DNA of 19,893 bases from Hormoscilla sp. Its GTDB lineage: Bacteria > Cyanobacteriota > Cyanobacteriia > Cyanobacteriales > Desertifilaceae. The notes beneath the pieces are model-generated. The model was not told the DNA's origin. It was given only the letters and a program-made list of their open reading frames with translations, and ran no database searches. Both the position numbers and the translations under genes were made by a program. The DNA lies in the NCBI GenBank assembly GCA_051439505.1, contig JBFRWI010000109.1:1-19893 (forward strand), read 5' to 3'. The first letter of the stretch is position 1; every line of letters begins with the position of its first letter. Shown one piece after another: positions 2,956-19,893 of this stretch.

Positions 2956-2980
2956 CTAGAGATGCTCTCAAAGTAAAACC

Positions 2981-4357: not shown

Positions 4358-4373
4358 TCAGATTGGCCTCATG

Positions 4374-4495: not shown

Positions 4496-4559
4496 TCCCT
4501 CATCTGACAGGAGATAAATCCGGTTTCTACAGAAATAGCCTACAAAAAAGGAGACATTT

Positions 4560-5456
4560 ATGCGCCGCAAACGTTCTTCTCCCTGGATTCATCGTCAGTC
4601 GCGTTTTATAATTGCGATCGTCGCCACTTTAGGTGCGGTGACAACGGCCTATCTGACTGCGGTTACTTTTGCAGGAGAATCTGCTGCCTGTCCCACGGAG
4701 GGTTGTGATAAAGTCCTGTCTAGTCCCTATGCCATTGTTTTTGGCTTACCTCTGGCATTGTTCGGTTTGTTAGCCTATGCTAGTATGGCGGGGATGGCAG
4801 TGTCGCCCTGGTTGCTCAATCCTGATTCCCAAAAGGAATTGCGTTCACAGCTAGAAAACTGGACGTGGTTGTTAATGTTCGCAGGCGGGACATCAATGGC
4901 CCTATTCAGCGGCTATCTGATGTACGTGATGGCATTTGAGATCAAGTCCCTTTGTCTGTACTGTATTTTTTCCGCTGTTTGCTCTGTGAGTTTAGCTATA
5001 CTGGCATTCATCGGTCGTGATTGGAAAGATATCGGGCAAGTGTTTTTCATCGGCGTGATCGTGGGAATGATTACTCTGGTGGGAACTTTAGCAGTTTATG
5101 CTCCCATTAATAATCCCCGGGCCGAACAAGGGGGAGGCTATGCGATTACGACTACTTCAACTCCGGCCAAAATTGCCCTAGCGAAGCATCTCAAAGCAGC
5201 GGGATTTAAAATGTATGGAGCATTTTGGTGCAGTCACTGTCAAGATCAAAAGACATTATTTGGAAAAGAAGCTGCTGCTGAATTAAACTACATTGAGTGT
5301 GACCCGAACGGGAAAAATCCGCAGATGGCTTTATGCAGAACGGCGGGGGTCCCAAGCTATCCGACTTGGGAAGTGAAGGGTCAGTTGTACCCAGGGGTGC
5401 AAGGGTTGGAACAGCTAGCAGAGTTATCGGGGTATACAGGCGATCGCAACTTTTAG
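4560..5456 (+). CDS. Vitamin K epoxide reductase (VKOR)-thioredoxin-like fusion, disulfide bond formation protein
   Basis: Loop cysteines CPTEGC, VLSSPYA motif, membrane CLYC motif, five hydrophobic helices, C-terminal MYGAFWCSHC thioredoxin-like domain. Confidence 0.92.
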   Translation: MRRKRSSPWIHRQSRFIIAIVATLGAVTTAYLTAVTFAGESAACPTEGCDKVLSSPYAIVFGLPLALFGLLAYASMAGMAVSPWLLNPDSQKELRSQLENWTWLLMFAGGTSMALFSGYLMYVMAFEIKSLCLYCIFSAVCSVSLAILAFIGRDWKDIGQVFFIGVIVGMITLVGTLAVYAPINNPRAEQGGGYAITTTSTPAKIALAKHLKAAGFKMYGAFWCSHCQDQKTLFGKEAAAELNYIECDPNGKNPQMALCRTAGVPSYPTWEVKGQLYPGVQGLEQLAELSGYTGDRNF

Positions 5457-5514
5457 CGCGGATCGATAAAGAATTAGGGACGTTGCACATTTTGGGGATG
5501 ATAGTTGTCAGTTT

Positions 5515-5535
5515 GTAGGGTGGGCACTGCCCACC
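5515..5535. repeat. REP-like palindrome, copy 2 (GTAG-headed)
   Basis: GTAGGGTGGGCACTGCCCACC. Confidence 0.85.
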
Positions 5536-5627
5536 AATTCAGTGGTCAGTGGTCAGTTGTCATTACCAAGAAGATAAGTTATGGTTGAGAAAAAACCAGC
5601 AGAATAGACAAACTAAGGAATACGGCC

Positions 5628-5915
5628 ATGTCAGAACAAATTACGCCAGCAATTAGCGATCGCATCTGCAAGCACATGAACGAAGACCACGCCTCGGCGA
5701 TCGCGCTTTACGCCCAAACCTTTGGCAATAGTCCCGAAACGACATCAGCGTACATGAACTCCATAGACCCCGAAGGAATGAATATTACAGCCCAAATCAA
5801 CGGTTCGGAGGTTCCTGTACGGATAAAATTCGACCATACTCTGGCCGATGCTGAAGACGCCCATCATACCCTAATCGCCATGGTTAAACAAGCACGACAG
5901 GCTACCCAAAAATAA
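5628..5915 (+). CDS. DUF2470 domain protein (HugZ/GluBP-related heme-associated domain)
   Basis: 95 aa; RICKHMNEDH and ID.EGM...VRIKFDH.L....DAHHTLIAM motifs; AAGGA upstream. Confidence 0.9.
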   Translation: MSEQITPAISDRICKHMNEDHASAIALYAQTFGNSPETTSAYMNSIDPEGMNITAQINGSEVPVRIKFDHTLADAEDAHHTLIAMVKQARQATQK

Positions 5916-5919
5916 GAGT

Positions 5920-5998
5920 CGTTCGTAGTAAGCACTTTAGTGCTTCGTTCGTAGTAAGCACTAAAGTGCTTCCGTTCGGAGTAAGCACTTTAGTGCTT
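5920..5998. repeat. Three tandem 26-bp palindrome-containing repeats
   Basis: CGTTCGTAGTAAGCACTTTAGTGCTT (5920-5945), variant with CTAAAG centre (5946-5971), third copy at 5973-5998; no spacers. Confidence 0.9.
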
Positions 5999-6003
5999 CT
6001 CAA

Positions 6004-7188
6004 TTAATCTCTCAAACAAGACATGCTCTCATGGAAATTTTCAGGTCTGCCTCCTATCAAGTTCATTGCCCAAATCTCGTCTAAACTATAGTCTATCAGC
6101 CATTTATCTAAATCTAGAGAGTCAGCCCAAGTCATAGTTGTCAGCCCAGAGACAGCATCACAAACTAGGATTTCTCTCGGATCGAGAAATCTAATTAACC
6201 TATCTGAATGGGTTGCTACAATCAACTGAGTGCGCTGAGCAGCTTCTCGCATGACATCCACTAGCAGTCGCAACAACTCTGGATGCAAGCAAACTTCTGG
6301 CTCGTCAATCATAGTAACAGCAGATAACTCCTGACTTTGTAAGAGAGTCACTAGCCAGAGAAACCGCAATGTTCCTTCCGATAGCTGCTCCATGTAAAAG
6401 GGTTCGGAAAAGTTTTTATCCTTCCAAGTCAATGCTAAGGTTCCTGCTGCTACTGGCGGAAACCCCAATCGCTCAAAATCTGTAAATGCCGCAGCTAAAG
6501 TATCTTGCACTACCTCAAAGCGATCGGGATTTGTTTCTCGAAGATAGTAAAGACAAGAAACCAAAGTCTCTCCATTTGCTCCTGGTAATTTAGCTGGACG
6601 CATCTGTTGGGGAAGACGCGCGGGGCTTCTAGGGGAAACATTTAAGTTTCCAGCAGTATAAAAAGCACAGTTAGCCAATCTAGTTCTGATATTTTCTGGC
6701 TGCTGATACATCTTGGGAACCTGAGATAGGGACGTTTCTAAAGGATTATGTTCCCAGTTAGGGCGCAATAGCTGCCCATCTTCGGTACTATAATACTTGA
6801 TATCCAAGCCACGAGAGTCGATGTACTGGATGGAGACTGCATCAGCACCCTGTTGGGTCAAAATTTCTCTAGCAATTTCATAGAACTGACCTTTGAGAAC
6901 GAGTTTAAGGTAGTAATGCAGCGGTTGCCCATCCGGTACGGGCACGGACAAGGAAATTCCTATAGCATCAGTCTTGTCTCGCGTCACTATTTGACTGAGA
7001 CCGCTCAATTCGGAAATTTGGGACTGCAACTGACCTTTTGCTGAAGCTGCTAGCAGAGAAAAGATTTCCAAGAAAGAAGTTTTCCCCACACCATTAGCAC
7101 CAATCATCACAGTCAGGGGTCGTAGCTCCAGATTCAGGTCAAACAAGCGCCGGTAGCCCTCAAGGGTAATTTGTGTAAATGCGTTCAT
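6004..7188 (-). CDS. Soluble ABC-type/AAA_21 family ATPase (COG4637-like)
   Basis: Walker A GANGVGKT, signature LSEGT, Walker B MIDEPE, H-loop ATHS; no transmembrane segments. Confidence 0.88.
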   Translation of the reverse strand: MNAFTQITLEGYRRLFDLNLELRPLTVMIGANGVGKTSFLEIFSLLAASAKGQLQSQISELSGLSQIVTRDKTDAIGISLSVPVPDGQPLHYYLKLVLKGQFYEIAREILTQQGADAVSIQYIDSRGLDIKYYSTEDGQLLRPNWEHNPLETSLSQVPKMYQQPENIRTRLANCAFYTAGNLNVSPRSPARLPQQMRPAKLPGANGETLVSCLYYLRETNPDRFEVVQDTLAAAFTDFERLGFPPVAAGTLALTWKDKNFSEPFYMEQLSEGTLRFLWLVTLLQSQELSAVTMIDEPEVCLHPELLRLLVDVMREAAQRTQLIVATHSDRLIRFLDPREILVCDAVSGLTTMTWADSLDLDKWLIDYSLDEIWAMNLIGGRPENFHESMSCLRD

Positions 7189-7252
7189 AACTGAAAATTC
7201 AGATGCTATGCTCCGAACGGTCAGGAACTGCGCTTTTTTGACTAGGCAAAAT

Positions 7253-7412
7253 TGTCATTGCGAGGGGGGGATAATTGAGAGAGCCTTGTGTTTTAGGAGT
7301 AACCCCCCCCCCGAAGCAATCTCCTGAGGTCTTGCTGGGTAGGAGATTGCTTCGGGGGGGATGGCGGTTGTGAATATCAGCAATCTCACAAAAACCCCCC
7401 CTCGCAATGACA
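7253..7412. repeat. 160-bp palindromic element with TGTCATTGCGAG/CTCGCAATGACA ends
   Basis: Outer inverted repeat TGTCATTGCGAGGGGGGG...CCCCCCCTCGCAATGACA; inner inverted repeat CCCCCCCGAAGCAATCTC...GAGATTGCTTCGGGGGGG. Confidence 0.9.
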
Positions 7413-7458
7413 TATTCAATAGCTGCAAAAAGCGCAAGTCGATCCCATTCCAAGTGTA

Positions 7459-7467
7459 TGCTATAAT
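7459..7467 (+). promoter_or_regulatory. Extended -10 element (TGnTATAAT)
   Basis: TGCTATAAT ends 7 nt before the ATG at 7475, which suggests a leaderless or very short-leader transcript. Confidence 0.5.
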
Positions 7468-7474
7468 TTTACCT

Positions 7475-7840
7475 ATGATTGACATTAACATTCTCTGGGA
7501 ATTCTCCAGGAACAACTGCATCGCCATTTGTGCCTTTCTGGTGCCAGCTAACCTGCTGGCAACCTTGCTGACTATGATTCTGGTGGCAGTCGATCGCCCT
7601 CGGATGCAAGTCTGGGGGGCAGCAGGCTTGGCTTCACTACCGGCGATCGCCATGTTTCTGCACGTGCTGAGTTGGTTCATCATTGGGGTAGTCATGGCAC
7701 CTACCTACATCCTGTTCTTTCTAGGATGCGTTTGTCTGCTGATTAATTTCTGGGCAGTTTCCGCACCCAAAACCATGTCTTACCTCTTGCGAGTTCCCTA
7801 TTACAAGCTCCGCTCTCTCGAAGGGCAGATTTCAGGATAA
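7475..7840 (+). CDS. Small hypothetical membrane protein
   Basis: Start moved from 7361 (inside the palindromic repeat) to ATG 7475 (MIDINILWEFSRNNCIAICAFLVPANL...); about three hydrophobic segments; ends 6 nt before the MerR gene. Confidence 0.75.
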   Translation: MIDINILWEFSRNNCIAICAFLVPANLLATLLTMILVAVDRPRMQVWGAAGLASLPAIAMFLHVLSWFIIGVVMAPTYILFFLGCVCLLINFWAVSAPKTMSYLLRVPYYKLRSLEGQISG

Positions 7841-7846
7841 ACTGTC

Positions 7847-8260
7847 ATGTTAAGCACCGAGCAGCAGCTACTGTTAATAGGTCAGGTAGCAAGCAAAAGC
7901 GGTATCCCCATTAAAACCATTCGCTATTACGAACAACTCGGTCTGATTAAAGCTTCAGACCGGACTTCAGGAGGGTTTCGGCTATTTGACCCCTCGGTAT
8001 TCACTCGTCTGGCTTTCATCAAGCGCAGCCAAGGTCTGGGACTCAGCTTACAAGAAATTGCTCAATGTCTGCAAGTATACGATCGCGGGGAGCTTCCCTG
8101 CGACGCTATCAAGCACAAGTTGCAAGCAAAACTGGTAGAAATAGAAGGAAAAATAGAACATTTGCAAGGTCTAAAAGCTGATATCTGCCAACTCCTGACT
8201 GCTTGGAAGCCAGTCTCAGAACAACAGGACAAAATTTGCCCAATTATTCAAAAAGATTGA
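7847..8260 (+). CDS. MerR-family heavy-metal-responsive transcriptional regulator
   Basis: IGQVA...IKTIRYYEQLGLI...RTSGGFRLF HTH, FIKRSQGLGLSLQEI, and Cys residues in LPCD and ICPI. Confidence 0.93.
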   Translation: MLSTEQQLLLIGQVASKSGIPIKTIRYYEQLGLIKASDRTSGGFRLFDPSVFTRLAFIKRSQGLGLSLQEIAQCLQVYDRGELPCDAIKHKLQAKLVEIEGKIEHLQGLKADICQLLTAWKPVSEQQDKICPIIQKD

Positions 8261-8316
8261 CTAATGGATAATGGATAATGGCTAATGGCTAATGGCTAAT
8301 GGCTAATGGCTAATAG
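8261..8316. repeat. Short tandemly repeated heptamer (STRR-type), 8 units of (C/A)TAATGG
   Basis: Read directly after the MerR stop codon; last unit is CTAATAG. Confidence 0.9.
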
Positions 8317-8442
8317 CGAGCATATTGCCATTAATTAACATTTATTCACCCTCGTCGGTCACTGGTGTATGGTGCAATGTCACAACTCATCGGTGTTCTT
8401 GTGCAACGCCAAGATTGACTGACTACAGGATTTAATGACTTA

Positions 8443-8484
8443 AGGGAAAAAGAACGATCGCCATCAGATCGATCTTTTTTCCCT
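8443..8484. terminator. Hairpin between convergent MerR and lipA genes
   Basis: AGGGAAAAAGAACGATC...GATCGATCTTTTTTCCCT imperfect inverted repeat. Confidence 0.5.
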
Positions 8485-8496
8485 AACAACTGACAT

Positions 8497-8517
8497 GGTG
8501 GGCACTGCCCACCCTAC
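8497..8517. repeat. REP-like palindrome, copy 3 (opposite orientation)
   Basis: GGTGGGCACTGCCCACCCTAC. Confidence 0.85.
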
Positions 8518-8523
8518 CAACTG

Positions 8524-9423
8524 TTATGCTTCTCCCGCGTGATAGGAACTGCGAACTAGGGGACCGGAACGGACGTGAGAGAAACCCATCTCACGGGCGA
8601 TCGCGCCCAATTTATCGAACTCCTCTGGCCTCCAGTATTTCTCCACTGGTAGGTGTGCCAGAGAAGGCCGCATATATTGACCGATGGTGAGGCGATCGCA
8701 CCCGACGGCCCGCAGATCGGCCATAGCTTCGATCGTTTCCGCTTCCGTTTCCCCAAGTCCCAGCATTAACCCCGACTTCGTAGGTATAGTCGGATCCAAC
8801 TCCTTGACAAAACGTAACACATCTAGGGAGAGATCGTACTTGGCCCCGCGACGCACCGGTCCTTGCAAGCGTCGTACCGTCTCCAAATTATGGTTATAAC
8901 AAGCCGGTTGAGCGCGGACCACCGTAGCGACCAATTCCTTTTGTCCCCAAAAATCCGGTGTCAGCACCTCAATTTCCGTTTCTGGGTTCAACTGGCGCAC
9001 CGCAGCCATTGTGGCCGCAAACCAACCCGCCCCCCGATCGGGCAAATCATCTCGGGCCACCGAAGTCAGCACCACATAGCGCAACCCCAGCAACTGCACC
9101 GACTCTGCCACCTTTTGCGGTTCCTGGGGATCTAGGGGCATGGGTGCGTGACCTTTATCCACTTGACAAAAAGCACAAGAGCGAGTACAAGTAGGCCCCA
9201 TCAGCAGAAAAGTCGCCGTCAGATTAGCATAGCACTCTCCCCGGTTGGGACAGCGTCCCTCCTCGCAGATCGTGTGAATTTGACGTTGCTTGATAATTCG
9301 CTGTACTGTAGAAATATCGCTAGCGTTACCGACGGGGCGTCGCAACCAAGGTGGGAGACGATCTCCTGAGGCAGGGCGCTGCCTGGCAGCGGACTGAGTT
9401 TGGTCAGATTTTGTGATTGACAT
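8524..9423 (-). CDS. lipA: Lipoyl synthase
   Basis: [12 protein letters not shown] auxiliary-cluster motif, CTRSCAFC radical SAM motif, C-terminal [10 protein letters not shown]. Confidence 0.97.
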
Positions 9424-9629
9424 ATAGCATATTCGGCCAACTTAGTACGTTAATATGTTGAAATAAGTTGATTAATTTCCCTTGGCCAGAGGGGATTCTA
9501 GTTGAAGTAGTGTAATTTTAACCCACCTGTCGGTCATGCTGATATTTTTAACAGCAACTGGGGCATCAATATCTTCAACCTGTGAACTCATAATATCATC
9601 TTTACACTCACCATTCCTAGGAGTCAGTC

Positions 9630-10238
9630 GTGGCACAAAAACACAAAATATTAGTTATCGATGACAGTAGAGTTATCCGGATGCGGGTGCGGGATATGTT
9701 GCCAGAAGGTAACTTTGAAGTCCTGGAAGCCAAAGATGGCGAAGAAGGACTGAATTTTATCCGCCAGCAAAACCCAAACCTGATCATGCTAGATTTCCTC
9801 TTGCCTAAGGTCAGTGGCTGGGATGTATTTCAGCATATTCGCGGCAATGCTAAGTTTCGGAAGATTCCCCTAGTGTTGATGTCTGGTCGCAAAGAAGAGG
9901 TGACCGAGAAAATCCCCGAACCCTTCGAGTTTTGGGAGTTCATCGAAAAGCCTTTTGAGCAAAAACAGCTGATTGGTGCCATCAAATCAGCCATGAAAAA
10001 GGCGACCAAGCCGCAACCACCACTAGAACAGGAAGCTCCCGCCCCAGCGATTACAACTGCACCATCCGGGGCCGCCACCACAGCTGGTGCTGGCTCGGCT
10101 GAGATCGAACAGCTCAAACAGCAGATGGCCAAAATGCAGGCTGAAATTGAAGCCTTGAAAAAACAGGTGGCCCAGATCGAGCCCTTGAAACAGAACGTGG
10201 CCAAGATTTTTAACTTCGTCAAACAGAAGGTGAAGTAA
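9630..10238 (+). CDS. Response regulator: receiver domain, Pro/Ala linker and C-terminal coiled coil
   Basis: ILVIDD, phospho-acceptor IMLDFLLP, FIEKPF; GTG start with AGGAG upstream. Confidence 0.9.
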   Translation: MAQKHKILVIDDSRVIRMRVRDMLPEGNFEVLEAKDGEEGLNFIRQQNPNLIMLDFLLPKVSGWDVFQHIRGNAKFRKIPLVLMSGRKEEVTEKIPEPFEFWEFIEKPFEQKQLIGAIKSAMKKATKPQPPLEQEAPAPAITTAPSGAATTAGAGSAEIEQLKQQMAKMQAEIEALKKQVAQIEPLKQNVAKIFNFVKQKVK

Positions 10239-10256
10239 TATCACAGCAACTATCTC

Positions 10257-10292
10257 CCCTGTATGGAAGTGATATATAAAGTCTGTACAGGG
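10257..10292 (+). terminator. Hairpin between convergent genes
   Basis: CCCTGTATGGA...TCTGTACAGGG pairs fully with G-U pairs on the + strand RNA. Confidence 0.5.
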
Positions 10293-10295
10293 TGA

Positions 10296-11027
10296 TTAAA
10301 CTGCTAGCAGCAGCACTGAGTAAAAGCCTGCACCGACAAGGAAAGACCAGAAACAACTTTCCCGATTTTCGGGTATTTCTTCTTTGAGGACATTCAGGAT
10401 TATCCCGCCAGCTACGAAGGCCCAGATAGTCGCGATCGCAGCGGAGTCAAGATGGATTGAGTTTCCCAGCACCCAGCCCAAAATAATCGCTCCTGCTAAT
10501 ACCCAGCGCCCCCTGCGATCGTAAGCATGTTTGTGGTGTTCTCGCAAGCTGTAGTCGTTAACAATGAAATGTCCGGCCAAAGCTACAAACAGCAGCAAGG
10601 CACTAACTAAGCCACGTTCTTCCGCATCGCTTAATAAGTTTCCTATGAGCGCATTATAAATCGCAAAAGAACCAATATGTACCCAGAAAACCCCAAGAGA
10701 AGTAGAGTCTGACTCTTGAGTCTTGCGGTTGGACTGGCGCGATCGCTGGGCTAATAACTCCAGCCCGTAGAAGGCCGCCAAACCGAGCAGAGCGAGAATG
10801 TAAACGTGCTTTTCCAGATATTCTACAATGGGGCTGCCAGAATGTTCGATTTCCTCTTGAGCTTTATGCAACTCCGGTAAGATGTCGAGAAAAATGTAGG
10901 CAATAGATATCCCTGCACCTAGGGAAAACCAGCGATAACGGGGCATGAGATCCAGCCAGCGCAGCTTCCCAGCAAAGAGATGCAAGAGAACCAGGCCCAT
11001 TGGCAGTAACAGATACAGAAAGCTCAT
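10296..11027 (-). CDS. Multi-pass membrane protein, ZIP-transporter-like
   Basis: AGISIAYIFLDILPEL motif, His-containing helices (VHIGSF, AGHF), AFVAGGIILNVLKEEIP; start inferred at ATG 11027 (MSFLYLLL) rather than 11168. Confidence 0.7.
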   Translation of the reverse strand: MSFLYLLLPMGLVLLHLFAGKLRWLDLMPRYRWFSLGAGISIAYIFLDILPELHKAQEEIEHSGSPIVEYLEKHVYILALLGLAAFYGLELLAQRSRQSNRKTQESDSTSLGVFWVHIGSFAIYNALIGNLLSDAEERGLVSALLLFVALAGHFIVNDYSLREHHKHAYDRRGRWVLAGAIILGWVLGNSIHLDSAAIATIWAFVAGGIILNVLKEEIPENRESCFWSFLVGAGFYSVLLLAV

Positions 11028-11075
11028 GAAATTATATCGGTGGAACGTTAATTGTCTCATGTCAAGGGACAGATG

Positions 11076-11095
11076 CGGCAGGTTAAAACCTGCCG
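11076..11095. terminator. Hairpin downstream of recR
   Basis: CGGCAGGTT-aa-AACCTGCCG perfect inverted repeat. Confidence 0.45.
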
Positions 11096-11160
11096 ATTTC
11101 CGAGGATACAACTGGCGAAAGAGATTTCTTCCGTACAGGGGAAACTTCCCGAGAGTAAGC

Positions 11161-11757
11161 TTAATCATCCAGTGCGCGGCGTCCTGCCAAAGCTCGTGCT
11201 AAAGTAACTTCATCAGCATACTCTAAATCGCCCCCCATCGGTAAACCAAAGGCGATGCGGGTGACTTTAGTAAAGGGCTTGAGCAGTTGACCGATATAGA
11301 GGGTAGTAGTTTCACCTTCAACGCTGGGGTTGATAGCCAAAATCACTTCTTGAATATATGGCTGACTGGCCCGCCGCACTAAGGCTTGAATGGTCAACTG
11401 TTCTGGACCAATGCCATCCATCGGAGAAATCATCCCGCCCAACACGTGATACTGACCGCGATATTCCCGGGTTTTTTCCAGGGCGATTACGTCCCGGGAG
11501 TCCGCCACCACACAAATGGTGTTTTTGTCGCGGTTCTGGTTGCGGCAAATTTCGCAGGTGGGTTCGGCGGACAGGTGAAAGCATATCTGACAGAGACCAA
11601 CTTGTTTTTTGGCCTCGACTAAGGCTTGGGCCAAGGCTTGCACCTCGGCTTCCGGTCGCTTCAGGATATGTAAAGCCAGTCGTTGAGCTGTTTTGGGCCC
11701 AACTCCAGGTAAGCGCTGTAATTGCTCGATCAGGCGAGCTAAAGGTCGAGTGTAAAC
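11161..11757 (-). CDS. recR: Recombination mediator RecR (198 aa, non-canonical GTT start)
   Basis: Frame extends upstream of the listed ORF as (V/M)[32 protein letters not shown]4 zinc finger and Toprim motifs ([25 protein letters not shown]); GGAGG 9 nt before GTT. Confidence 0.95.
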
Positions 11758-11843
11758 GGTTGTAGTCCTCCAGGGTAGAGTTCTATCCCGATCTTAAACT
11801 AAGGATGGTCCCTCTGACCCAATACCTCTCGGTTAAGCAGGGA

Positions 11844-11949
11844 GTAGGAGATTGCTAGCCCTCCTGCGTCGGGCCGCTGCGCTAACGGGGGGGGTCCACT
11901 CAATTGAGCATAAGTCCGAGGCGCTTGTTGCCCCCCCCTCGCAATGACA
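11844..11949. repeat. Half copy of the 7253-7412 palindromic element with an internal insertion
   Basis: GTAGGAGATTGCT...CGGGGGGG...CCCCCCCTCGCAATGACA matches the right half of 7253-7412. Confidence 0.75.
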
Positions 11950-12053
11950 ACCTATATCCAAAACCTACGAAGTGTTGCCCTTTGACCTTCCAGATCGGGG
12001 AATCTGATTGTATAATATCACTACTGATTCATAATATCTGATAACTCACAACT

Positions 12054-12671
12054 ATGGTAGAAACAATTTCAGCTAAAGACGTCACTCTGAAGCAATTAAA
12101 AACTATCTTCGATCTTCAACTGGCTGAAGATGAGCAAGTTTTCCGCGAGTGGCAAGACAACTTACCAGAAATTACTGATTGGCAAAAGCAAATGTTAGAC
12201 CGGGTAAAAGCTGGATATTTTAATTTACTCTATTACCCTCCCTTGCTAGAAAAGCCCGTCAATATGGCGATCGTCTCACCCCTGCTTTTTATCGGAGAAT
12301 TTTATCTTTCACCTTTTCACTTCAAAGCTGAAAAGGCTGTAGAAATTTCAGCGTCTGATGAAGAAATAGTAATCAAGGGTAGCATTGATACTCTGGTTTT
12401 GCAAGAGCACTTGTGGGTAATGGTAATCGAATCTAAACGGGCTAGCTTCTCCATAGAAGCTGGACTCCCACAAATTCTAGCTTATATGCTGGCCAACCCC
12501 GAGCGACAGAAACCGTGCTTTGGCATGATAACCACTGGCGGCACCTTTATTTTCATCAAATTAGTCAAAGGTGAAGCCCCAAGATACGCGACATCGGCTG
12601 AATTTTCCCTGCGCAACCCCGGGAATGATTTGTATCGGGTTCTGAGCATTCTTAAACGCCTCAGTTCGTAG
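12054..12671 (+). CDS. Stand-alone PD-(D/E)xK restriction-endonuclease-like protein (type I HsdR N-terminal-like)
   Basis: E...GSIDTLV...VIESKR...GLPQILAYM...FGMITTG motif pattern. Confidence 0.8.
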   Translation: MVETISAKDVTLKQLKTIFDLQLAEDEQVFREWQDNLPEITDWQKQMLDRVKAGYFNLLYYPPLLEKPVNMAIVSPLLFIGEFYLSPFHFKAEKAVEISASDEEIVIKGSIDTLVLQEHLWVMVIESKRASFSIEAGLPQILAYMLANPERQKPCFGMITTGGTFIFIKLVKGEAPRYATSAEFSLRNPGNDLYRVLSILKRLSS

Positions 12672-12760
12672 GTTTGGTTACATAAGGAAACAAAACAAAA
12701 AATCGTCGTATTCTTCGATATTAATTTGAACTAGCCATCAGTAGTAAATCAACGTAGTAA

Positions 12761-12800
12761 AACAAAAAGCGCCCCCCAGTAAAGGAGAGCGCTTTTTGTT
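12761..12800 (-). terminator. Rho-independent terminator of psbA copy 1 (probably bidirectional)
   Basis: Minus strand AACAAAAAGCGCTCTCC-tttact-GGGGGGCGCTTTTTGTT. Confidence 0.85.
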
Positions 12801-12814
12801 ATTTTAGCTAAATA

Positions 12815-13897
12815 TTAGCCATTGATCGCCGGAGCGGTCAAAGCAACAGGAGCAGCTTCACCGGAGGCCAAGTCTAAGGGGAAGTTGTGAGCATTGCGCT
12901 CGTGCATTACTTCCATCCCCAGGTTAGCGCGGTTCAGCACATCTGCCCAAGTACCGATCACGCGACCTTGAGAGTCAATGATGGACTGGTTGAAGTTGAA
13001 ACCGTTCAGGTTGAAGGCCATCGTGCTCACGCCCAAAGCTGTGAACCAGATGCCGATCACCGGCCAGGCACCCAAGAAGAAGTGCAAGGAACGGCTGTTG
13101 TTGAATGAAGCATATTGGAAGATCAAACGACCGAAGTAGCCGTGAGCTGCGACGATGTTGTAGGTTTCTTCTTCTTGACCGAATTTGTAACCGTAGTTTT
13201 GTGATTCTACTTCGGTTGTTTCACGCACCAAGGAAGAAGTTACCAAAGAACCGTGCATGGCGCAGAACAGAGAACCGCCGAACACGCCTGCTACACCCAG
13301 CATGTGGAAGGGGTGCATCAGGATGTTATGCTCTGCTTGGAACACCAACATGAAGTTGAATGTACCAGAGATCCCCAAGGGCATACCATCGGAGAAGGAA
13401 CCTTGGCCGATCGGGTAGATCAAGAACACTGCGGTTGCGGCGCTAACTGGGGCGCTGTAAGCAACACAGATCCAAGGACGCATACCCAAGCGGTAGCTGA
13501 GTTCCCACTGACGACCCATGTAGCAGCAAATGCCAATGAAGAAGTGGAAGATGATCAGCTGGTAAGGGCCACCGTTGTACAGCCACTCATCCAAGGAAGC
13601 TGCTTCCCAGATGGGGTAGAAGTGCAGCCCGATCGCATTTGAGCTGGGCACAACTGCACCAGAGATGATGTTGTTGCCGTACAGCAGAGAACCAGCAACC
13701 GGCTCCCGGATACCATCGATGTCCACGGGAGGAGCAGCGATGAATGCGATGATGTAGCAGGTGGTAGCGGTCAGCAGGGTTGGGATCATCAGGACGCCGA
13801 ACCAGCCCACATACAGGCGGTTGTCGGTGCTGGTCACCCAGTTGCAGAACCGGTCCCAAACGTTAGCGTTTTCACGCTGTTGTAAGGTCGTAGTCAT
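12815..13897 (-). CDS. psbA: Photosystem II D1 protein, copy 1 (standard form, Q130)
   Basis: 360 aa canonical D1; Mn4CaO5 ligand motifs and the HNFPLDLA processing site are intact. Confidence 0.99.
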
Positions 13898-13962
13898 GTT
13901 ATTTATGATTGCTATTTATTTTTCGAGGTTCGTTTGGTAGGTTGTTTTTCCTACCTGAATAC

Positions 13963-13992
13963 AGCATAGCTAACTTCATTGAGTTTTGTAAA
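13963..13992 (-). promoter_or_regulatory. psbA copy 1 promoter
   Basis: TTTACA-18 nt-TATGCT on the minus strand, the usual psbA promoter layout. Confidence 0.7.
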
Positions 13993-14041
13993 CCCCTGTT
14001 AATTTTTTTGTACTTATACCTCATATAAGCAGAGCTTATGC

Positions 14042-14150
14042 TTTGGGACGTGAGTTCGACAGCCGCGATAACCATTATTTCACGTCGGGTTGAAAATCTC
14101 TCAAACCCGCATGATTGTGTTCAAGAGATCCCGAACGGAGAACTCCGAAC
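14042..14150 (+). repeat. Dispersed ~110 bp MITE-like repeat, copy B
   Basis: Colinear with the reverse complement of 24-132. Confidence 0.8.
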
Positions 14151-14175
14151 TCCTTCCCTCCGAACTCCCAAAATG

Positions 14176-14261
14176 GGACTTACGCACAATATCCATATTT
14201 AGTGGTTTGTAGGGGTAGCGCCCCTGTGCCTACCCTACAAGTAGAGTAGGTGCGTAAGTTC
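14176..14261. mobile_element. MITE-like element with 12-bp terminal inverted repeats enclosing a REP-like hairpin
   Basis: GGACTTACGCAC...GTGCGTAAGTTC (one mismatch); internal TTGTAGGGGTAGCGCCCCTGTGCCTACCCTACAA. Confidence 0.6.
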
Positions 14262-14286
14262 TGAATCAGAAGCGATCGGGTCTGTG

Positions 14287-14315
14287 TTGACACTGTACGC
14301 ACAAAGCGTTATATT
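14287..14315 (+). promoter_or_regulatory. Sigma70-type promoter of the toxin-antitoxin operon with a candidate operator in the spacer
   Basis: TTGACA-17 nt-TATATT; the spacer carries the inverted repeat ACGC-acaaa-GCGT. Confidence 0.7.
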
Positions 14316-14354
14316 GGGAGAGATAAGCTTTTGTTAGTTAAGAGGGTGACAGTG

Positions 14355-14651
14355 ATGTCAGCGTCAGAAGTTGAAAAAGCAGCGAGTCAGACCCGTGATG
14401 TAAAAATCAACATTAGGGCTAAACAAAATCAACGAGATTTAATCGATCGCGCGGCACAAGTCCAGGGGAAAAGTCGCTCGGAATTTATGCTGGAATCAGC
14501 GTACCAAAAAGCCCAAGAAGTTCTTTTATCCGAGTGCTTTTTTGGGGTAGATGAAGTGAAATTTCAGCAATTTGTGGATCGGCTTGATGCCCCCCCAACG
14601 CGAAATGACAAATTACACACCTTGTTAACAACGAAGTCGCCGTGGGATTAA
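14355..14651 (+). CDS. DUF1778 ribbon-helix-helix antitoxin (TacA/AtaR-like)
   Basis: INIRA...RDLIDRAAQVQGKSRSEFMLESA...F...LDAPP...L..LLTTKSPWD; overlaps the toxin start; ATG 14355 preferred to TTG 14331. Confidence 0.9.
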   Translation: MSASEVEKAASQTRDVKINIRAKQNQRDLIDRAAQVQGKSRSEFMLESAYQKAQEVLLSECFFGVDEVKFQQFVDRLDAPPTRNDKLHTLLTTKSPWD

Positions 14652-14836
14652 ATCAAGAGCAAAACAAGCTGAATCCCCCAGAAAAGCTCAATTCATCGCA
14701 TCAAATTGACCAATTTGATTCCGGCAACAGCAAGCTAAATGACTGGCTGAAAAAGCGGGCTTTAAAAAATGAATTAGAGGGTGCTTCACGTACTTATGTT
14801 CTCTGCACGGGCCAAGTAGTTATTGCATATTATTGA
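14642..14836 (+). pseudogene. Truncated GNAT acetyltransferase toxin (TacT/AtaT-like), N-terminal 64 aa only
   Basis: H.IDQFDSG...LNDWLKKRALKNE..GASRTYV...VIAYY then stop; the acetyl-CoA-binding part is missing; the stop coincides with the end of the beta-barrel gene. Confidence 0.88.
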
Positions 14837-15702
14837 GCGTGAGAATTCATCAATTTATCATTAATAGAATAAGAAGGAATAACAGATGTAGTATTCTCAT
14901 CTTCGGGGATTTGGCGTTCCCTGGTAATAATTCCTCGACCTCCGAACTCAATGCTGATTCCTAATCTGGTATCTCCACCCCGCATACTAAGAGTGGTGCG
15001 TAGTCCAATATCTTGATTTCCTCGATCGTCCAAATTGTAACCAGTACGGAAGGACAAAGAAGTGACAGGCAAATTGGTATCGCCGATCGGGATGCTGTAG
15101 TTTGCATACCCACTGAAGCTGACTCTTTCATTGGCGACAAACCCCGCTCCGATGCCAAAATTTAAGCTATGATTATCGGACTCTAACGATTGAGAATATC
15201 CCAGAGAAGCTAAGATGATGACAGGATCTCTGATTAAACTCGCTTGACTTTGAACGGTGATTGTCCAAGGGTATGCAACACCGACGGAAAAACGAGGATC
15301 TATAGTAGAGCCAGGAGAAGGACGGTATTCTAAAGATAAATCAGTGCTAATGTCAGTGTCAGTTTCCGTTCTCGTTTCAGTCCGATCGCCAAAATCTCTT
15401 TTTTCCTTAAAAATGAACAAACTAGGGATGACGCTGGCGGAAATACTTACATAGGGGCTAAAACTGTAGCTTCCTGAACCAGAAAAGTTAATCAATTGAT
15501 TGAAAGTTTCAAAATTAAACGGAGTCCCATCTGGCTCAAAGTCAAATCCTTCTCTTCCATCGGGGATATAATTGATGCTGAAATTATAGATGTAGCTTCC
15601 CGTTTCTTCTTCTGGTAGTCGCAATGGGTCAATGGGAACTTGAGCGACTGCGGGTTGAGAGATTAACAAAGCGATCGGCAGAATCAACAGCCCCTTGTTC
15701 AT
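14830..15702 (-). CDS. Predicted outer-membrane beta-barrel, FapF-like transporter
   Basis: Signal peptide (..SQPAVA|Q); many alternating amphipathic beta-strands; DPVIILASLGY and GAGFVANERVSFS resemble FapF-family motifs as I recall them; ATGA overlap with the C39 gene. Confidence 0.7.
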   Translation of the reverse strand: MNKGLLILPIALLISQPAVAQVPIDPLRLPEEETGSYIYNFSINYIPDGREGFDFEPDGTPFNFETFNQLINFSGSGSYSFSPYVSISASVIPSLFIFKEKRDFGDRTETRTETDTDISTDLSLEYRPSPGSTIDPRFSVGVAYPWTITVQSQASLIRDPVIILASLGYSQSLESDNHSLNFGIGAGFVANERVSFSGYANYSIPIGDTNLPVTSLSFRTGYNLDDRGNQDIGLRTTLSMRGGDTRLGISIEFGGRGIITRERQIPEDENTTSVIPSYSINDKLMNSHAQ

Positions 15703-16346
15703 AATTTCCTTCTCAACGAGTTGAGGGTTACTAAACGGGACTCGGCCCAGCTTAAGGTTTCGTTTTGTTGTTCTTTTACAGTGAAAATTAAGTTTTCCGG
15801 TGGAACGGGTACAAGGGTTACACCACTAAAACCTTGTTCATTGACTAAAGCATCAAGGGGTTGAATGCGTCGTCCCCATGATGGATCGGCTAAAATGATC
15901 CAATCTCCTACCATACCGACAGCTAAAACGTAGTGCATTTGAGGTTTGGTGACGTGCAAAACTACCGGCAGTCCACCGTTACCAAAGTATTCGGCTAAGG
16001 ATGTGAGGGTTAGTCGCATTCCCCTAGCTTGAATGCCGCGATCGTCTAAAGCTTGTATTAATGCTAAAGCGGTGATTCCTGTTTCTTCTAGAATTTTGCT
16101 GCTTTCTGCCATTGCTGTTTCTGACAGTGCTAAAATCTCTGCTTCCGTGGTTGGGCGATCGTAGTAGTGAGTCAGCAAGGTGGCAACAGCCGCAGCACCA
16201 CAAGTGTAATAGGTAGTTTGACCGACGACTCCTTCATAGCGAAGAGTGCGGTAAGGTGTTATTGGATTAGCCAAACTAGGAGCCACTAAAATAAAGAAGT
16301 TAATTATCTGACATAATACACAAAAGTAAAAACAATATTTCAACAT
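15699..16346 (-). CDS. Stand-alone exported C39 cysteine peptidase (FapD/C39G-like)
   Basis: Signal peptide (..APSLA|N); VVGQ43TTYYTC49GAAAVATLL, H138YV and LAD154PSWG catalytic motifs; no ABC transporter domains. Confidence 0.92.
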   Translation of the reverse strand: MLKYCFYFCVLCQIINFFILVAPSLANPITPYRTLRYEGVVGQTTYYTCGAAAVATLLTHYYDRPTTEAEILALSETAMAESSKILEETGITALALIQALDDRGIQARGMRLTLTSLAEYFGNGGLPVVLHVTKPQMHYVLAVGMVGDWIILADPSWGRRIQPLDALVNEQGFSGVTLVPVPPENLIFTVKEQQNETLSWAESRLVTLNSLRRKL

Positions 16347-16375
16347 TTTTAAAATATTGGCGACCTCTTCTCAAT

Positions 16376-16413
16376 AAAAAAGCAATGGGTTGAAAATAGA
16401 CTCTCCAACCCAT
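16376..16413 (-). terminator. Intra-operon terminator/stabilising hairpin between precursor and peptidase genes
   Basis: Minus-strand RNA AUGGGUUGGAGA-gucua-UUUUCAACCCAU (12-bp stem with G-U pairs) followed by UGCUUUUU. Confidence 0.7.
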
Positions 16414-16469
16414 GCAATTTTCAGGTAAATTTCAATCTGGAAAAAAATTGCTTTTTCAGCAAAAGAAAA

Positions 16470-16811
16470 TTACCAACGCTGGCGGGACGAAAATCCTCTT
16501 TGTCGGCCTCCCATGCCTGGGCCTCCCATTTGTTGGCCTCGGGCTTGGCCTCCTTGTTGGCTTCCCATGCCTGGGCCTCCTTGTTGGCCTCCCATGCCTG
16601 GGCCTCCTTGTTGGCCTCCCATGGGTCGGCCTCCCATTGAGCCTTCAATTTCTGCGAGTTCGGCATCGGTCATCATTGCCCCTTCCGGTAGTACAATTTG
16701 ATTTTGTGTCTCCGGTTCAATTTCTGATGATAAAGAATCAGCAAAAGCAGGAGCGATCGCCACATTCGAGAGTAAAACATCTGTACCTGCTGCCATTAAG
16801 AACTTTTTCAT
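16470..16811 (-). CDS. Secreted precursor peptide: Sec signal, acidic double-glycine-type leader and Gly/Gln/Met repeat core
   Basis: MKK...APAFA|D signal; MTDAELAEIEGS leader motif; 55-aa core with MGGQQGGPG repeats; first gene of the C39/beta-barrel unit. Confidence 0.8.
   Translation of the reverse strand: MKKFLMAAGTDVLLSNVAIAPAFADSLSSEIEPETQNQIVLPEGAMMTDAELAEIEGSMGGRPMGGQQGGPGMGGQQGGPGMGSQQGGQARGQQMGGPGMGGRQRGFSSRQRW
16505..16637. repeat. Coding tandem repeat, 27-bp unit GGCCTCCCATGCCTGGGCCTCCTTGTT and variants
   Basis: Near-identical units at 16559-16585 and 16586-16612; degenerate units at 16505, 16535, 16613 and 16628. Confidence 0.9.
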
Positions 16812-16849
16812 TGGAACAACCGTTTAATTTGGGTCTGTCTCTATAAACA

Positions 16850-16879
16850 AATATAACTTCTATTTTTAGAGATTGCCAA
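16850..16879 (-). promoter_or_regulatory. Candidate promoter of the precursor operon
   Basis: TTGGCA-18 nt-TATATT on the minus strand, 38 nt upstream of the ATG. Confidence 0.45.
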
Positions 16880-16888
16880 GTCTGAAAA

Positions 16889-16980
16889 GTAGGATTTAGG
16901 ACATAAATTTCCGAAAAAGTTAAAAACTCATTTAGTAGGATTTAGTAGGATCTGGTTTACAAAGTAGGATTTGGTAGGAT
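16889..16980. promoter_or_regulatory. Five GTAGGAT direct-repeat boxes in the divergent intergenic region
   Basis: GTAGGAT at 16889, 16935, 16945, 16964 and 16974; two pairs have exact 10-bp spacing. Confidence 0.7.
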
Positions 16981-17020
16981 ATCGTTAATTGTTCAAGATT
17001 AAGTCTCTGTATTTATACTG

Positions 17021-18493
17021 ATGAAGCATATCGAAGAAGTGTTAGAGTGGGCTGAAAATGTAATCGTTGACCAAACCGGCGAACCTATCACACCGATAGA
17101 GGAAGCGATCCTCAAGGGTGTTTGGCAGCGACAAACCTATCCGCAAATCGCTGAAACTTTGAATTGCAGTCCATCTCACGTTAAGAAAGAAGCCGCGAAG
17201 TTATGGGATAAGCTGCGGGATGAGTTAGGAGAAGACCTGAATAAATATAATTTTCGTTCCAAGGTGGAAAAAAAACATAGAGTTTCTCAATCTTCACAAG
17301 CCAACCACTGTCTACAAGTTAATACTGTTAACCAAGTTGATACGCTTAACATTGATAGTAAATTAATACAAAGTATAAAAACTCCCAAAACCAGATCGCC
17401 CTCTGAGTCCTCTTCTCCCTCTTCAACCTCCACCGAAAATCGATCGCCCATCATTGACTTAACCGACGCACCAGAACTCACCGACTTTTACGATCGCACC
17501 ACCGAACTATCCACCCTGAAACAATGGATATTAAAAGACCATACCCGGTTAATCACCATCTACGGCTTCAGTGAAATTGGCAAAAGTACACTTACCCTCA
17601 AACTCATCGAACAAATCCATAATCAATTTGACTATATTATTTGGCGAAGCCCGAGCAATGTTCCCACATTGTCCGTTCTGAAAACAGAACTAAAAGAATT
17701 TTTTGCCCAGTCGCAACCGAACCCATTACCGACAGTTCTGGATTATTTTCGCTCCTCGCGCTGTTTAGTCATCCTCGATGATTTGCAGACTATTTTTCAA
17801 AGCGGTCAACTCGCCGGTGAATACTTAACAGGATATAAAGAATATGGCAAATTCTTGAAACAAATTGCCAGAAACCATCATCAGAGTTGTGTGATTCTCC
17901 TCAGTTGGGAAAAATCCAGAGAACTCGCTACCTTAGAAGGGAAAAACAGACCTGCCCGAACCTTACATCTGAAAGGATTAGAATCCGGGGCTGAGGAAAT
18001 TTTGCGAGAATACGGATTAACCGATGAAGAACGATGGCCGGAGTTAATTAACCTCTATCAAGGTCATCCGACCTGGTTAAATATTATCGCTTCAACTATC
18101 GTGGAACTATTTGACGGTAAGGTTTCTCTATTTTTAGGCGATTCCCCCCAACCCGATGGCGGGCCAATAAAAATTGATTCCTTTGATTCCCCCCTAGCCC
18201 CCCCAACTCCCCAAACCTGGGGGGAGTCAGCGGAGATATTTTTAGGGGACTTAGAACCGATTCTAGAATCTCAGTTAGAACGATTATCAGAATTAGAACA
18301 ACAGGTAATTTCCTGTTTCCGAGAAAATGAGGCGATCGCCCTTTCCCAACAACCGGCGAATTGTGAATTATCCCAATCGGAATTATGGTCAGCCATGCAA
18401 TCTTTAGTCAGACGAGGGCTAGTCGAAAAAATCTCAGAGGGAGGGCGAGGAATGTTTCTTCTCAATCCAATTTGGCAACAGTATATTAAATAG
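17021..18493 (+). CDS. N-terminal wHTH plus NB-ARC (STAND) ATPase, putative transcriptional regulator, no WD40/TPR tail
   Basis: EEAILKGVWQRQTYPQIAE...LWDKL HTH; FYDRTTEL..LKQWI, Walker A GFSEIGKST, IIWRS, Walker B LVILDD, YQGHP, RLSELE, SLVRRGLVEK. Confidence 0.85.
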   Translation: MKHIEEVLEWAENVIVDQTGEPITPIEEAILKGVWQRQTYPQIAETLNCSPSHVKKEAAKLWDKLRDELGEDLNKYNFRSKVEKKHRVSQSSQANHCLQVNTVNQVDTLNIDSKLIQSIKTPKTRSPSESSSPSSTSTENRSPIIDLTDAPELTDFYDRTTELSTLKQWILKDHTRLITIYGFSEIGKSTLTLKLIEQIHNQFDYIIWRSPSNVPTLSVLKTELKEFFAQSQPNPLPTVLDYFRSSRCLVILDDLQTIFQSGQLAGEYLTGYKEYGKFLKQIARNHHQSCVILLSWEKSRELATLEGKNRPARTLHLKGLESGAEEILREYGLTDEERWPELINLYQGHPTWLNIIASTIVELFDGKVSLFLGDSPQPDGGPIKIDSFDSPLAPPTPQTWGESAEIFLGDLEPILESQLERLSELEQQVISCFRENEAIALSQQPANCELSQSELWSAMQSLVRRGLVEKISEGGRGMFLLNPIWQQYIK

Positions 18494-18496
18494 GAC

Positions 18497-18632
18497 TTAC
18501 GTCAAGATCCTCCAGGCAACTGGACCGTCCAAATCTTAGGAAAAGACAATGACTTAACCTTAGAATTAATCTGTGGGGCTAACGGTGACAATGGCACAAA
18601 TTTATGAAGATGTCTTCAGCCCGGATGCGTGA
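18497..18632 (+). pseudogene. 3' remnant of a Uma2-family endonuclease gene, frameshifted
   Basis: Translates LRQDPPGNWTVQILGKDNDLTLE, then after 4 extra nt (TTAA, 18566-18569) SVGLTVTMAQIYEDVFSPDA*; resembles the Uma2 C-terminus (R...W....L.LES..L.....IYEDV); no 5' part. Confidence 0.7.
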
Positions 18633-18640
18633 ATTCAACC

Positions 18641-18680
18641 ATAAAAAAACGCCCCCCTTTCCAGGAGAGCGTTTTTTTAT
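18641..18680 (-). terminator. Rho-independent terminator of psbA copy 2
   Basis: Minus strand ATAAAAAAACGCTCTCC-tggaaa-GGGGGGCGTTTTTTTAT; homologous to the copy 1 terminator. Confidence 0.85.
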
Positions 18681-18715
18681 TTAGTTAGCTAAATTAGCTA
18701 ATTTTTAGCTAATAA

Positions 18716-19798
18716 TTAGCCATTGATTTGGGGAGCGGTCAAAGCCACGGGGGCAGCTTCACCGGAGGCCAAGTCTAAGGGGAAGTTGTGAGCATTGCGC
18801 TCGTGCATTACTTCCATCCCCAGGTTAGCGCGGTTCAGCACGTCTGCCCAAGTACCGATCACGCGACCTTGAGAGTCGATGATGGACTGGTTGAAGTTGA
18901 AACCGTTCAGGTTGAAGGCCATCGTGCTCACGCCCAGGGCGGTGAACCAGATACCGATCACCGGCCAGGCACCCAATAAGAAGTGCAAGGAACGGCTGTT
19001 GTTGAAAGAAGCGTATTGTAATATCAAACGACCGAAGTAGCCGTGAGCTGCGACGATGTTGTAGGTTTCTTCTTCTTGACCGAATTTGTAACCGTAGTTT
19101 TGTGATTCCACTTCGGTTGTTTCACGCACCAGAGAAGAAGTCACCAAAGAACCGTGCATCGCGCAGAACAGAGAACCACCGAAGACACCGGCAACACCCA
19201 GCATGTGGAAGGGGTGCATCAGGATGTTATGCTCAGCTTGGAACACCAACATGAAGTTGAATGTACCAGAGATACCCAAGGGCATACCATCGGAGAAGGA
19301 ACCTTGCCCGATCGGGTAGATCAGGAACACTGCTGTTGCGGCGCTTACTGGTGCGCTATATGCAACACAGATCCAAGGACGCATACCCAGACGGTAGGAC
19401 AGTTCCCACTGACGACCCATGTAGCAGCAGATGCCGATGAAGAAGTGGAAGATGATCAGCTGGTAAGGACCACCGTTGTACAGCCACTCATCCAAGGAAG
19501 CTGCTTCCCAGATGGGGTAGAAGTGCAGACCGATCGCATTTGAGCTAGGCACAACTGCACCGGAGATGATGTTGTTGCCGTACAGCAGAGAACCAGCAAC
19601 CGGTTCCCGGATACCATCGATGTCCACGGGAGGAGCAGCGATGAAAGCGATGATGAAGCAGGTGGTAGCAGTTAAGAGGGTGGGGATCATCAGAGTACCG
19701 AACCAACCGACATAAATGCGGTTGTTGGTGCTGGTTACCCACTGACAAAACTGTTCCCACAAGGAAACGCCAGAGCGTTGTTGTAAGGTGGTAGTCAT
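18716..19798 (-). CDS. psbA: Photosystem II D1 protein, copy 2 (Q130; distinct N-terminus; L260 and L274)
   Basis: 360 aa D1 with intact water-oxidation ligand motifs. Confidence 0.99.
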
Positions 19799-19865
19799 GT
19801 TGGTTATAATTCCTGTTTGGTTTTCGAGGTACGAATGATTGGTATGATGACCTAATCTTAGACTT

Positions 19866-19883
19866 TTTGTAAAGTATTGTAAA
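19866..19883 (-). promoter_or_regulatory. HLR1 (RpaB-binding) direct repeat overlapping the psbA copy 2 promoter
   Basis: TTTACAAT-ac-TTTACAAA fits the (G/T)TTACA(T/A)(T/A)-N2 direct-repeat consensus. Confidence 0.8.
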
Positions 19884-19893
19884 GGAATTTAAG

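Follow-up and report, generated by a model that had tools for sequence, protein, structure and literature searches.

A candidate mobile cassette for exporting double-glycine-type peptides with exchangeable cores in Hormoscilla sp.

Gene organisation and occurrence of the cassette

The window analysed here, a 19,893-nucleotide stretch of Hormoscilla sp. DNA (contig JBFRWI010000109.1, positions 1 to 19,893), contains a small cassette that we read, with a probability of roughly 0.65, as a mobile system for the export of double-glycine-type peptides with exchangeable cores, probably antagonistic, that operates without an ATP-binding cassette (ABC) transporter. Three open reading frames (ORFs) on the minus strand encode a precursor protein of 113 amino acids (aa; 16470-16811), a stand-alone C39 cysteine peptidase of 215 aa with an N-terminal signal or anchor (15699-16346), and a 290-aa protein modelled as a FapF-like 12-strand outer-membrane beta-barrel (14830-15702). 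An earlier reading, made from the sequence only, had proposed these three co-oriented genes, and we found them in place, together with the ATGA overlap that it had described between the peptidase stop and the barrel start. As it had also stated, all three proteins begin with Sec-like signal peptides, assigned from pattern (basic N-terminus, hydrophobic stretch, and A-x-A) and hydropathy alone, and no ABC transporter, HlyD, or tailoring gene of the cassette appears in the ORF list or the family scan. However, the unit comprises four genes rather than three, since a divergent gene on the plus strand (17021-18493), encoding a 490-aa protein with helix-turn-helix and NB-ARC/STAND-type regions (weak Pfam matches), travels with the others. 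This NB-ARC-type gene adjoins the precursor gene in all seven other genomes recovered with a profile of the precursor leader, and its product probably regulates the cassette. Between the divergent genes lie five copies of TCCTAC, some at 10-bp spacing (16886-16986), which form a candidate operator and are the sole cluster of at least four copies within 210 bp in the genome; among 12 relatives, the seven closest have two to five copies and the five distant ones none or one. The gap of 123 bp between precursor and peptidase genes holds a terminator-like hairpin (16385-16413, minus strand) that had been overlooked earlier. With varying sequence, it also folds in ten of the ten relatives tried (without a shuffle control), and it may keep the precursor mRNA in excess. 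Several paralogues of the NB-ARC-type gene exist in the genome, next to unrelated and mixed genes, some encoding secreted proteins and some not; a general rule linking these regulators to secreted neighbours was considered and found unsupported, given this mixture.

The genes co-occur well beyond Hormoscilla. With a C39 profile, 1066 representatives score at E 0.001 or better. A C39 peptidase gene lies upstream of the barrel gene in 42 of 48 loci fetched by barrel similarity, several of them near-duplicates. Four of the six remaining loci start at most 30 bp from a contig edge and one has 460 bp upstream, so that L052, with 5 kb upstream of the barrel match and no C39, is the true exception. 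An ABC-like ORF occurs in a single one of the 48 loci, on the other strand. The leader profile recovered eight of 401 genomes of the order, with one site each; the seven other than Hormoscilla all have the regulator and C39 genes, with the barrel in the locus for six and shown separately for the seventh. Four of these seven repeat precursors already included in the profile, whereas G226, G422, and G446 are independent. Strong barrel matches were found in three of 401 genomes of the phylum, and four other genomes of the genus yielded no close match to the cassette, which is rare and patchy in cyanobacteria.

The closest named plasmid matches come from Thermus and Deinococcus (37-47% identity), and the named carriers available in culture are Thermus thermophilus, T. 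oshimai, Deinococcus plasmids, and a strain of Planktothricoides raciborskii (precursor P0200). On the plasmid of Deinococcus NW-56, a divergent two-component pair is followed by a precursor joining the leader to an Ntox33 domain (E 3.7e-23), a DUF4279 gene, C39, and the barrel. In T. oshimai the order is precursor, CAAX-protease-like membrane protein, C39, and barrel, and the high-GC metagenome loci L034 and L045 contain tandem precursor-partner pairs. By comparison, C39 is directly next after 15 of 17 cyanobacterial-type precursors. In a tree of 31 C39 sequences (L020, L022, L010, and L013 left out, their C39 not being recovered by pattern), the 13 rows of cyanobacterial type group together on one side of a branch (93/92), among Thermus-like and high-GC rows and far from two proteobacterial C39s. 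Two further precursors (L034:341-916 and L027:7506-7934) have basic, His-rich cores of no Pfam family and are candidates for new nuclease-type toxin domains. Toxin-antitoxin (TA) genes often stand just downstream of the barrel in the relatives.

Precursor, peptidase, and barrel

The precursors share one order: signal peptide, variable pro-region, conserved box, and variable core. In Hormoscilla, all on the minus strand, a predicted Sec signal peptide (residues 1-24, ending in A-F-A; 16740-16811) and a short pro-region precede a double-glycine-type leader box (residues 39-58; 16638-16697), with a cut predicted after Gly57-Ser58 from alignment, position counts, and the complex model, and a core of 55 aa (16470-16637) that is rich in Gly, Gln, Met, and Arg, has an isoelectric point of ~12, and is encoded by 27-nt repeats. 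Among 27 non-redundant precursors, Gly is found at position -2 in all 27, Glu at -8 and Leu at -7 in 25 each, three residues that belonged to the search pattern, and Val-Leu-Pro-x-Gly, which did not belong to it, at -19 to -15 in ~20. Position -1 is Glu in 17 of the 27 and Lys in seven. The spacing agrees with the double-glycine consensus given in PMC3140520, and the box has the make-up of a double-glycine-type leader; relatives give weak PF10439 and TIGR03949 matches, one of them passing the TIGR03949 class IIb bacteriocin model (24.6 against 21.5). In the Atlas, P0200 most resembles a 'Bacteriocin' cluster (0.93).

Leader and core have very different histories. Mean identity among 14 cyanobacterial-type precursors (91 pairs) is 66% for the last 20 leader residues and 30% for the cores. 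P0200 and P0201 are 98% identical in their N-terminal part and 31% in the core. A Coleofasciculus core is 81% like that of P0201, although the N-terminal parts are only 64% alike, and a Microcoleus core is 68% like that of P0200, with N-terminal parts at 67%. The same pattern is visible in sequencing runs, four of the 20 listed (X1, X3, X4, and X6) having been compared with the window. X1 and X3 match it, and one may be its source, whereas X4 and X6 are near-identical to it across barrel, peptidase, and regulator and have the core replaced. X4 parts from the window exactly where the Gly57 codon ends (16641). X6 does so at 16650, with 32 letters on its short side, and its core ends at the same stop as here. 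RNA runs contained at most 7% of the sequence words. The alleles and DNA runs record an exchange of cores by recombination at the leader border, and a constant N-terminal part with exchanged C-terminal cores is the arrangement of polymorphic toxins.

The sequence-only reading had taken the cargo to be a repeat-rich, low-complexity precursor, but the repeat core is confined to this one allele, and the cores of the relatives are unrelated to it, mostly hydrophobic and Gly/Ala-rich. Sixteen other cyanobacterial-type cores measure 50-79 aa, with a net charge of +4 to +8, 38-55% hydrophobic residues, and a Cys pair in 14; the present core has 39% Gly and 20% Gln. No Gly/Gln repeat core was found in any relative searched, nor a source for it or an orphan precursor elsewhere in the genome. 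A frameshifted core (+1 frame, with Trp-Glu-Ala repeats) was also considered, and rejected because that frame runs past the normal stop, the P0199 core starts like the present frame, and X6 rejoins at the same stop. The core is an atypical, repeat-expanded allele that may be inactive. Also private to this precursor, and likewise overlooked earlier, is Asp11 in the hydrophobic stretch of the signal peptide (position 16780), where its five closest relatives (P0199 to P0203) and the runs X4 and X6 have Ala. In the sister allele P0199, a 9-residue piece of the leader occurs in three tandem copies, followed by a core of <20 aa.

The peptidase retains all four residues named in the sequence-only reading (Q43, C49, H138, and D154), which are invariant in 61 aligned relatives, and it belongs to the C39 family (PF03412, 50.9 bits for a cut-off of 22). 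Its model fold matches PCAT1, ComA, and 6MPZ. By contrast, it stays far below the cut-off of the FapD equivalog NF058616, with a score of 45.5 against 330. It ends in a long conserved helix (residues 184-214) that PCAT C39 domains lack and that could serve for docking on the barrel. When precursor residues 30-70, which span the leader box, were modelled in complex with the peptidase, as had been proposed, the score was 0.78 against 0.02 for the best of three controls; the mark used for this score is reached by 116 of 157 solved pairs and by two of 215 mismatched ones. Runs share at least 79% of contacts, the partner has a predicted local distance difference test (pLDDT) value of at least 65, and the interface includes C49, H138, and the leader residues around the predicted cut. 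In these models the leader would sit in the C39 active site.

The prediction that the 290-aa protein is a membrane beta-barrel was borne out by an AlphaFold2 model with 12 long strands (residues 36-258), with pLDDT of 80-96 per strand block, a mean of 78.6, and disordered ends. Its resemblance to FapF was recovered too: FapF chains take the first six places in Foldseek (E 2e-10, template-modelling score ~0.53), and VIA-align superposes model residues 22-257 on FapF 97-406 (Z 19.9, root-mean-square deviation 2.3, 205 residues, 19% identity). At the level of sequence profiles, there is an OMP_b-brl match below the cut-off (E 3.9e-5), PF13557 in 24% of the members of an Atlas look-alike of the barrel, and a comparison of the family profile with a Cupriavidus Fap-type barrel in which the coiled coil alone matched (probability 17%). 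Just after the predicted signal cut, Q21, P23, I24, P26, and L27 are invariant in 27 aligned barrels (of 47 hits), consistent with a functional processed N-terminus, and the conserved segment 21-30 is probably a plug. By eye, a C-terminal coiled-coil-like stretch is present in 18 of the 27 barrels and missing here and in eight others. The Cupriavidus barrel, which carries an N-terminal coiled coil, stems from a Fap-like locus on a C. metallidurans megaplasmid (L067:3695-9313) that encodes a 511-aa Gly/Ala-rich secreted protein, a small protein, C39, and the barrel.

Proposed export route and alternative explanations

We consider it probable that the cassette sends its precursor through Sec, cuts it behind the leader in the periplasm, and releases the core by way of the barrel, cores being exchanged at the leader border. 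Judging from the signal patterns, Sec would carry precursor, peptidase, and barrel across the inner membrane. The periplasmic C39 would bind the internal leader, whose motif is plainly present and whose binding is modelled, and presumably cut after Gly57-Ser58. The freed core would then leave, unfolded, via the 12-strand barrel gated by its N-terminal plug, a transport step proposed from the example of FapF, whose fold the model resembles. Recombination at the leader border, as the alleles and runs show, swaps the cores, and the divergent NB-ARC-type protein would probably control the precursor promoter. Bacteriocin-like cores, Ntox33, and the immunity-like partners of Deinococcota suggest that the cores act as antagonistic peptides or toxins. 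The Sec-then-barrel route of the sequence-only reading is, in consequence, still the best one, although the Fap-like cargo that it had attached to the route is not supported.

With the Pseudomonas Fap system (PMC5557850) the cassette shares a signal-bearing stand-alone C39, a 12-strand barrel with an N-terminal plug-like segment, and the lack of an ABC transporter. It differs in having one precursor, composed of a leader and a swappable core, with cores unrelated between alleles, and in lacking the Asn/Gln repeats of FapB and FapC, a fapABCDEF operon, and Fap family matches. FapF also has an N-terminal coiled coil (PMC5557850), whereas the present barrel starts right after the signal and has none, and that of most cyanobacterial relatives is C-terminal. 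According to the accessible part of PMC3792158, Fap is found only in Proteobacteria, and FapD and FapF belong to larger families. The target of FapD is stated as unclear in the consulted part of PMC5557850, whereas this minimal unit provides a periplasmic C39 with one plain candidate substrate and a predictable cut site. A closer published precedent with peptide cargo is the Neisseria nap island (PMC11798529), where the C39 NapP and the FapF-related barrel NapF, both signal-bearing, stand beside genes for peptides of the GG (double-glycine) type, and for which periplasmic cutting and secretion of cationic GG peptides were proposed. In the parts of that report available to us, signal peptides are noted for NapP and NapF only and a holin is suggested for passage of the inner membrane, whereas the present precursor has its own Sec signal in front of a canonical leader; in addition, no small accessory ORF (napR, napI, or napH) lies here between precursor and C39, and by eye the precursor layout differs from that in its S1 Fig. 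A gonococcal C39 of the present kind is 27% identical and branches apart, and is a paralogue rather than NapP. The cassette belongs to neither Fap nor the nap island.

Class II microcins and double-glycine bacteriocins resemble the precursors in their L-S-x-x-E-L-x-x-V-x-G leader and Gly/Ala-rich cationic cores (PMC12219008, PMC3140520), and Deinococcota-type loci add membrane immunity proteins to this likeness. Their C39, however, is cytoplasmic and forms part of an ABC transporter that works with HlyD (PMC12219008, PMC3140520), whereas neither an ABC transporter nor HlyD is linked to the cassette, and the leader here is internal and ends in the family mostly in Gly-Glu or Gly-Lys. The seven groups of cyanobacterial bacteriocin clusters described in the consulted portion of PMC3140520 are all built around C39-ABC transporters with HlyD. 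Polymorphic toxins (PMC3482391) share a constant N-terminal trafficking part, a variable C-terminal core, a downstream partner, tandem cassettes, and Ntox33; they differ in that a downstream immunity gene is found in none of 17 cyanobacterial-type loci, candidates being present in the non-cyanobacterial relatives. The available passages of that survey list Ntox33 under the type II secretion system only and contain no C39-plus-barrel route. We found no published description of the cassette in cyanobacteria or Deinococcota in a search that left subscription journals largely outside. What the present case contributes is a branch in cyanobacteria and Deinococcota, direct signs that cores are exchanged at the leader, a form resembling polymorphic toxins that comes with partner genes, and an insertion site linked to psbA, described below. 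If our interpretation is right, machinery of the FapD/FapF type would serve interbacterial conflict besides amyloid, a class of predicted secreted cyanobacterial peptides mostly missed by Pfam and NCBIfam would be added, and a two-gene exporter tolerating unrelated cores could become a compact secretion tool.

Several observations weigh against this interpretation. Concerning the machinery, the Z score of 19.9 for FapF is tied with those of NanC, KdgM, EstA, NalP, and COG4313 (Z 19.3-21.4), so that the fold, shared with small-solute and autotransporter barrels, does not by itself indicate export; FapF nonetheless has the highest identity among the tied barrels, and its alignment takes in model residues from 22. 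A sequence-profile search of the PDB reaches FapF only at E 0.16. Solved C39-leader structures, among them 6MPZ and 6V9Z, may account for the complex score, which for that reason indicates likeness rather than binding. Concerning the cargo, the present core is 16% hydrophobic and has no Cys pair, and 20 of 21 proteins scanned pass no family cut-off. Concerning the partners, an ORF with two to four predicted membrane segments comes next after 16 of 20 non-cyanobacterial precursors, a count made without a control and based on whichever following ORF was most hydrophobic (of the other four, three precede a soluble ORF, in one case doubtful, and the last a hydrophobic ORF of 61 aa), and no multi-pass, immunity-like membrane ORF was found after any of the 17 cyanobacterial-type precursors. 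Finally, the Naps of Neisseria, served by a comparable pair, promote autolysis and, in the accessible part of PMC11798529, show no antibacterial activity, having failed to kill competitors. Because of the cyanobacterial copies without an immunity gene and this failure of the Naps, we regard an antagonistic role of the family as only somewhat favoured. The absence of an immunity gene from the cyanobacterial form implies that its targets are probably other species.

The likeliest of the alternatives is compatible with the proposed export cassette: the family may work as described and the Hormoscilla copy be decaying, exporting poorly or carrying an inactive core. Asp11 in the signal, the hydrophilic, repeat-expanded core without a Cys pair, and the short core and triplicated leader piece of P0199 point that way. 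On the other side, all four genes have open frames, leader and catalytic residues are intact, the stop coincides with the end of the X6 core, and barrels lacking the coiled coil are common (9 of 27). We regard decay as a possibility, though less likely than not.

Rather unlikely is that the cassette exports a matrix or amyloid peptide for mats or biofilms, as Fap does, with the Gly/Gln/Met repeat core forming fibres or condensates. Such a role would suit the FapF-like barrel, the FapD-like peptidase, the Gly and Gln content of the core, and the absence of an immunity gene from cyanobacterial loci, and it has parallels in the double-glycine proteins EbfG1-4 that enable Synechococcus biofilm (PMC4997328) and in Acinetobacter microcins that form amyloid (PMC13188072). 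It is at odds with the confinement of the repeat core to this allele, with the other cores, which contain 0-13% Asn plus Gln and are swapped, a rare behaviour for a structural subunit, and with the lack of FapA-, FapB-, FapC-, or FapE-like genes. More improbable still, the cores might be strain-specific pheromones, with the NB-ARC-type protein or the Deinococcus two-component pair in a sensing loop. The single precursor per genome with its variable core, the tightly linked divergent regulator, the missing immunity gene, and the histidine kinase and response regulator divergent in Deinococcus NW-56 would all fit, but cores of 50-120 aa are long for pheromones, Ntox33 with its DUF4279 partner and the tandem precursor-partner arrays point to conflict, and similar NB-ARC genes occur several times in the genome beside unrelated genes. 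Least likely of all is that the barrel is not the exit but some other pore, the precursor leaving through a peptidase-containing ABC transporter or staying in the periplasm: a C39-ABC transporter is indeed encoded on another contig and small-solute 12-strand porins score as high as FapF, but a signal-peptide-like N-terminus precedes the leader in all precursors (partly a search condition), the C39 and barrel genes are neighbours in 42 of 48 loci, drawn from distant groups, and the leader was found at no second site in eight genomes.

Insertion site, mobility, and neighbouring genes

Two direct psbA copies flank the cassette, both on the minus strand and 92% identical to each other (12815-13897 to the left, 18716-19798 to the right). 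The left insertion junction lies in a TA pair on the plus strand (14331-14836), of which the TacA antitoxin gene is intact and the GNAT toxin gene is interrupted at codon 64, where it meets the 3' end of the barrel gene. G004, a genome of the same genus, is 97% identical over 14173-14835 and has psbA, tacA, and the whole toxin gene of 174 aa. In that genome, the TA pair, a reverse-transcriptase-like ORF, and a psbA fragment stand between two psbA genes, whereas G006 has a single psbA after recR and no cassette. In G446, which belongs to another family, the cassette is also located between two psbA genes, and DNA identity reaches 92% over barrel and peptidase compared with 84-85% for psbA. A recent transfer of the cassette is well supported. 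A psbA end also adjoins the regulator in G462 and G643; the sequence retrieved around the cassette showed none in G422 and G342. These arrangements suggest that psbA serves as a recombination anchor, and psbA in tandem may offer mobile DNA a place to land. No crossover could be located within the right psbA, to which, over most of its length, the genome's own copies are 93-97% and G446 83-90% identical.

Taken one step further, the cassette could represent a distinct polymorphic-toxin secretion route, composed of Sec, a periplasmic double-glycine peptidase, and a FapF-like barrel and able to export any exchanged core, whether a membrane-active peptide or a nuclease-like domain. In this scenario, which we put forward tentatively, cyanobacteria acquired it from a Deinococcota-like pool, lost the immunity gene as their cores hit other species, and spread it between families via the conserved, multi-copy psbA as anchor.

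Other features of the window deserve mention. The two psbA copies differ at 15 residues, most of them in the N-terminus, and additionally by Phe260Leu and Phe274Leu in the right copy, which may encode a specialised D1 form. PADLOC gave no match for the regulator or the TA pair, but assigned an AAA ATPase (6004-7188) to HEC-01A (E 2.9e-66), which makes it a candidate anti-phage gene. The recR ORF as called (11161-11643) spans just 160 aa, with a TIGR00615 match that begins at position 41, and may have its true start further upstream or belong to a split gene. Finally, a 205-aa PD-(D/E)xK-like protein (12054-12671) has several paralogues in the genome and the genus.

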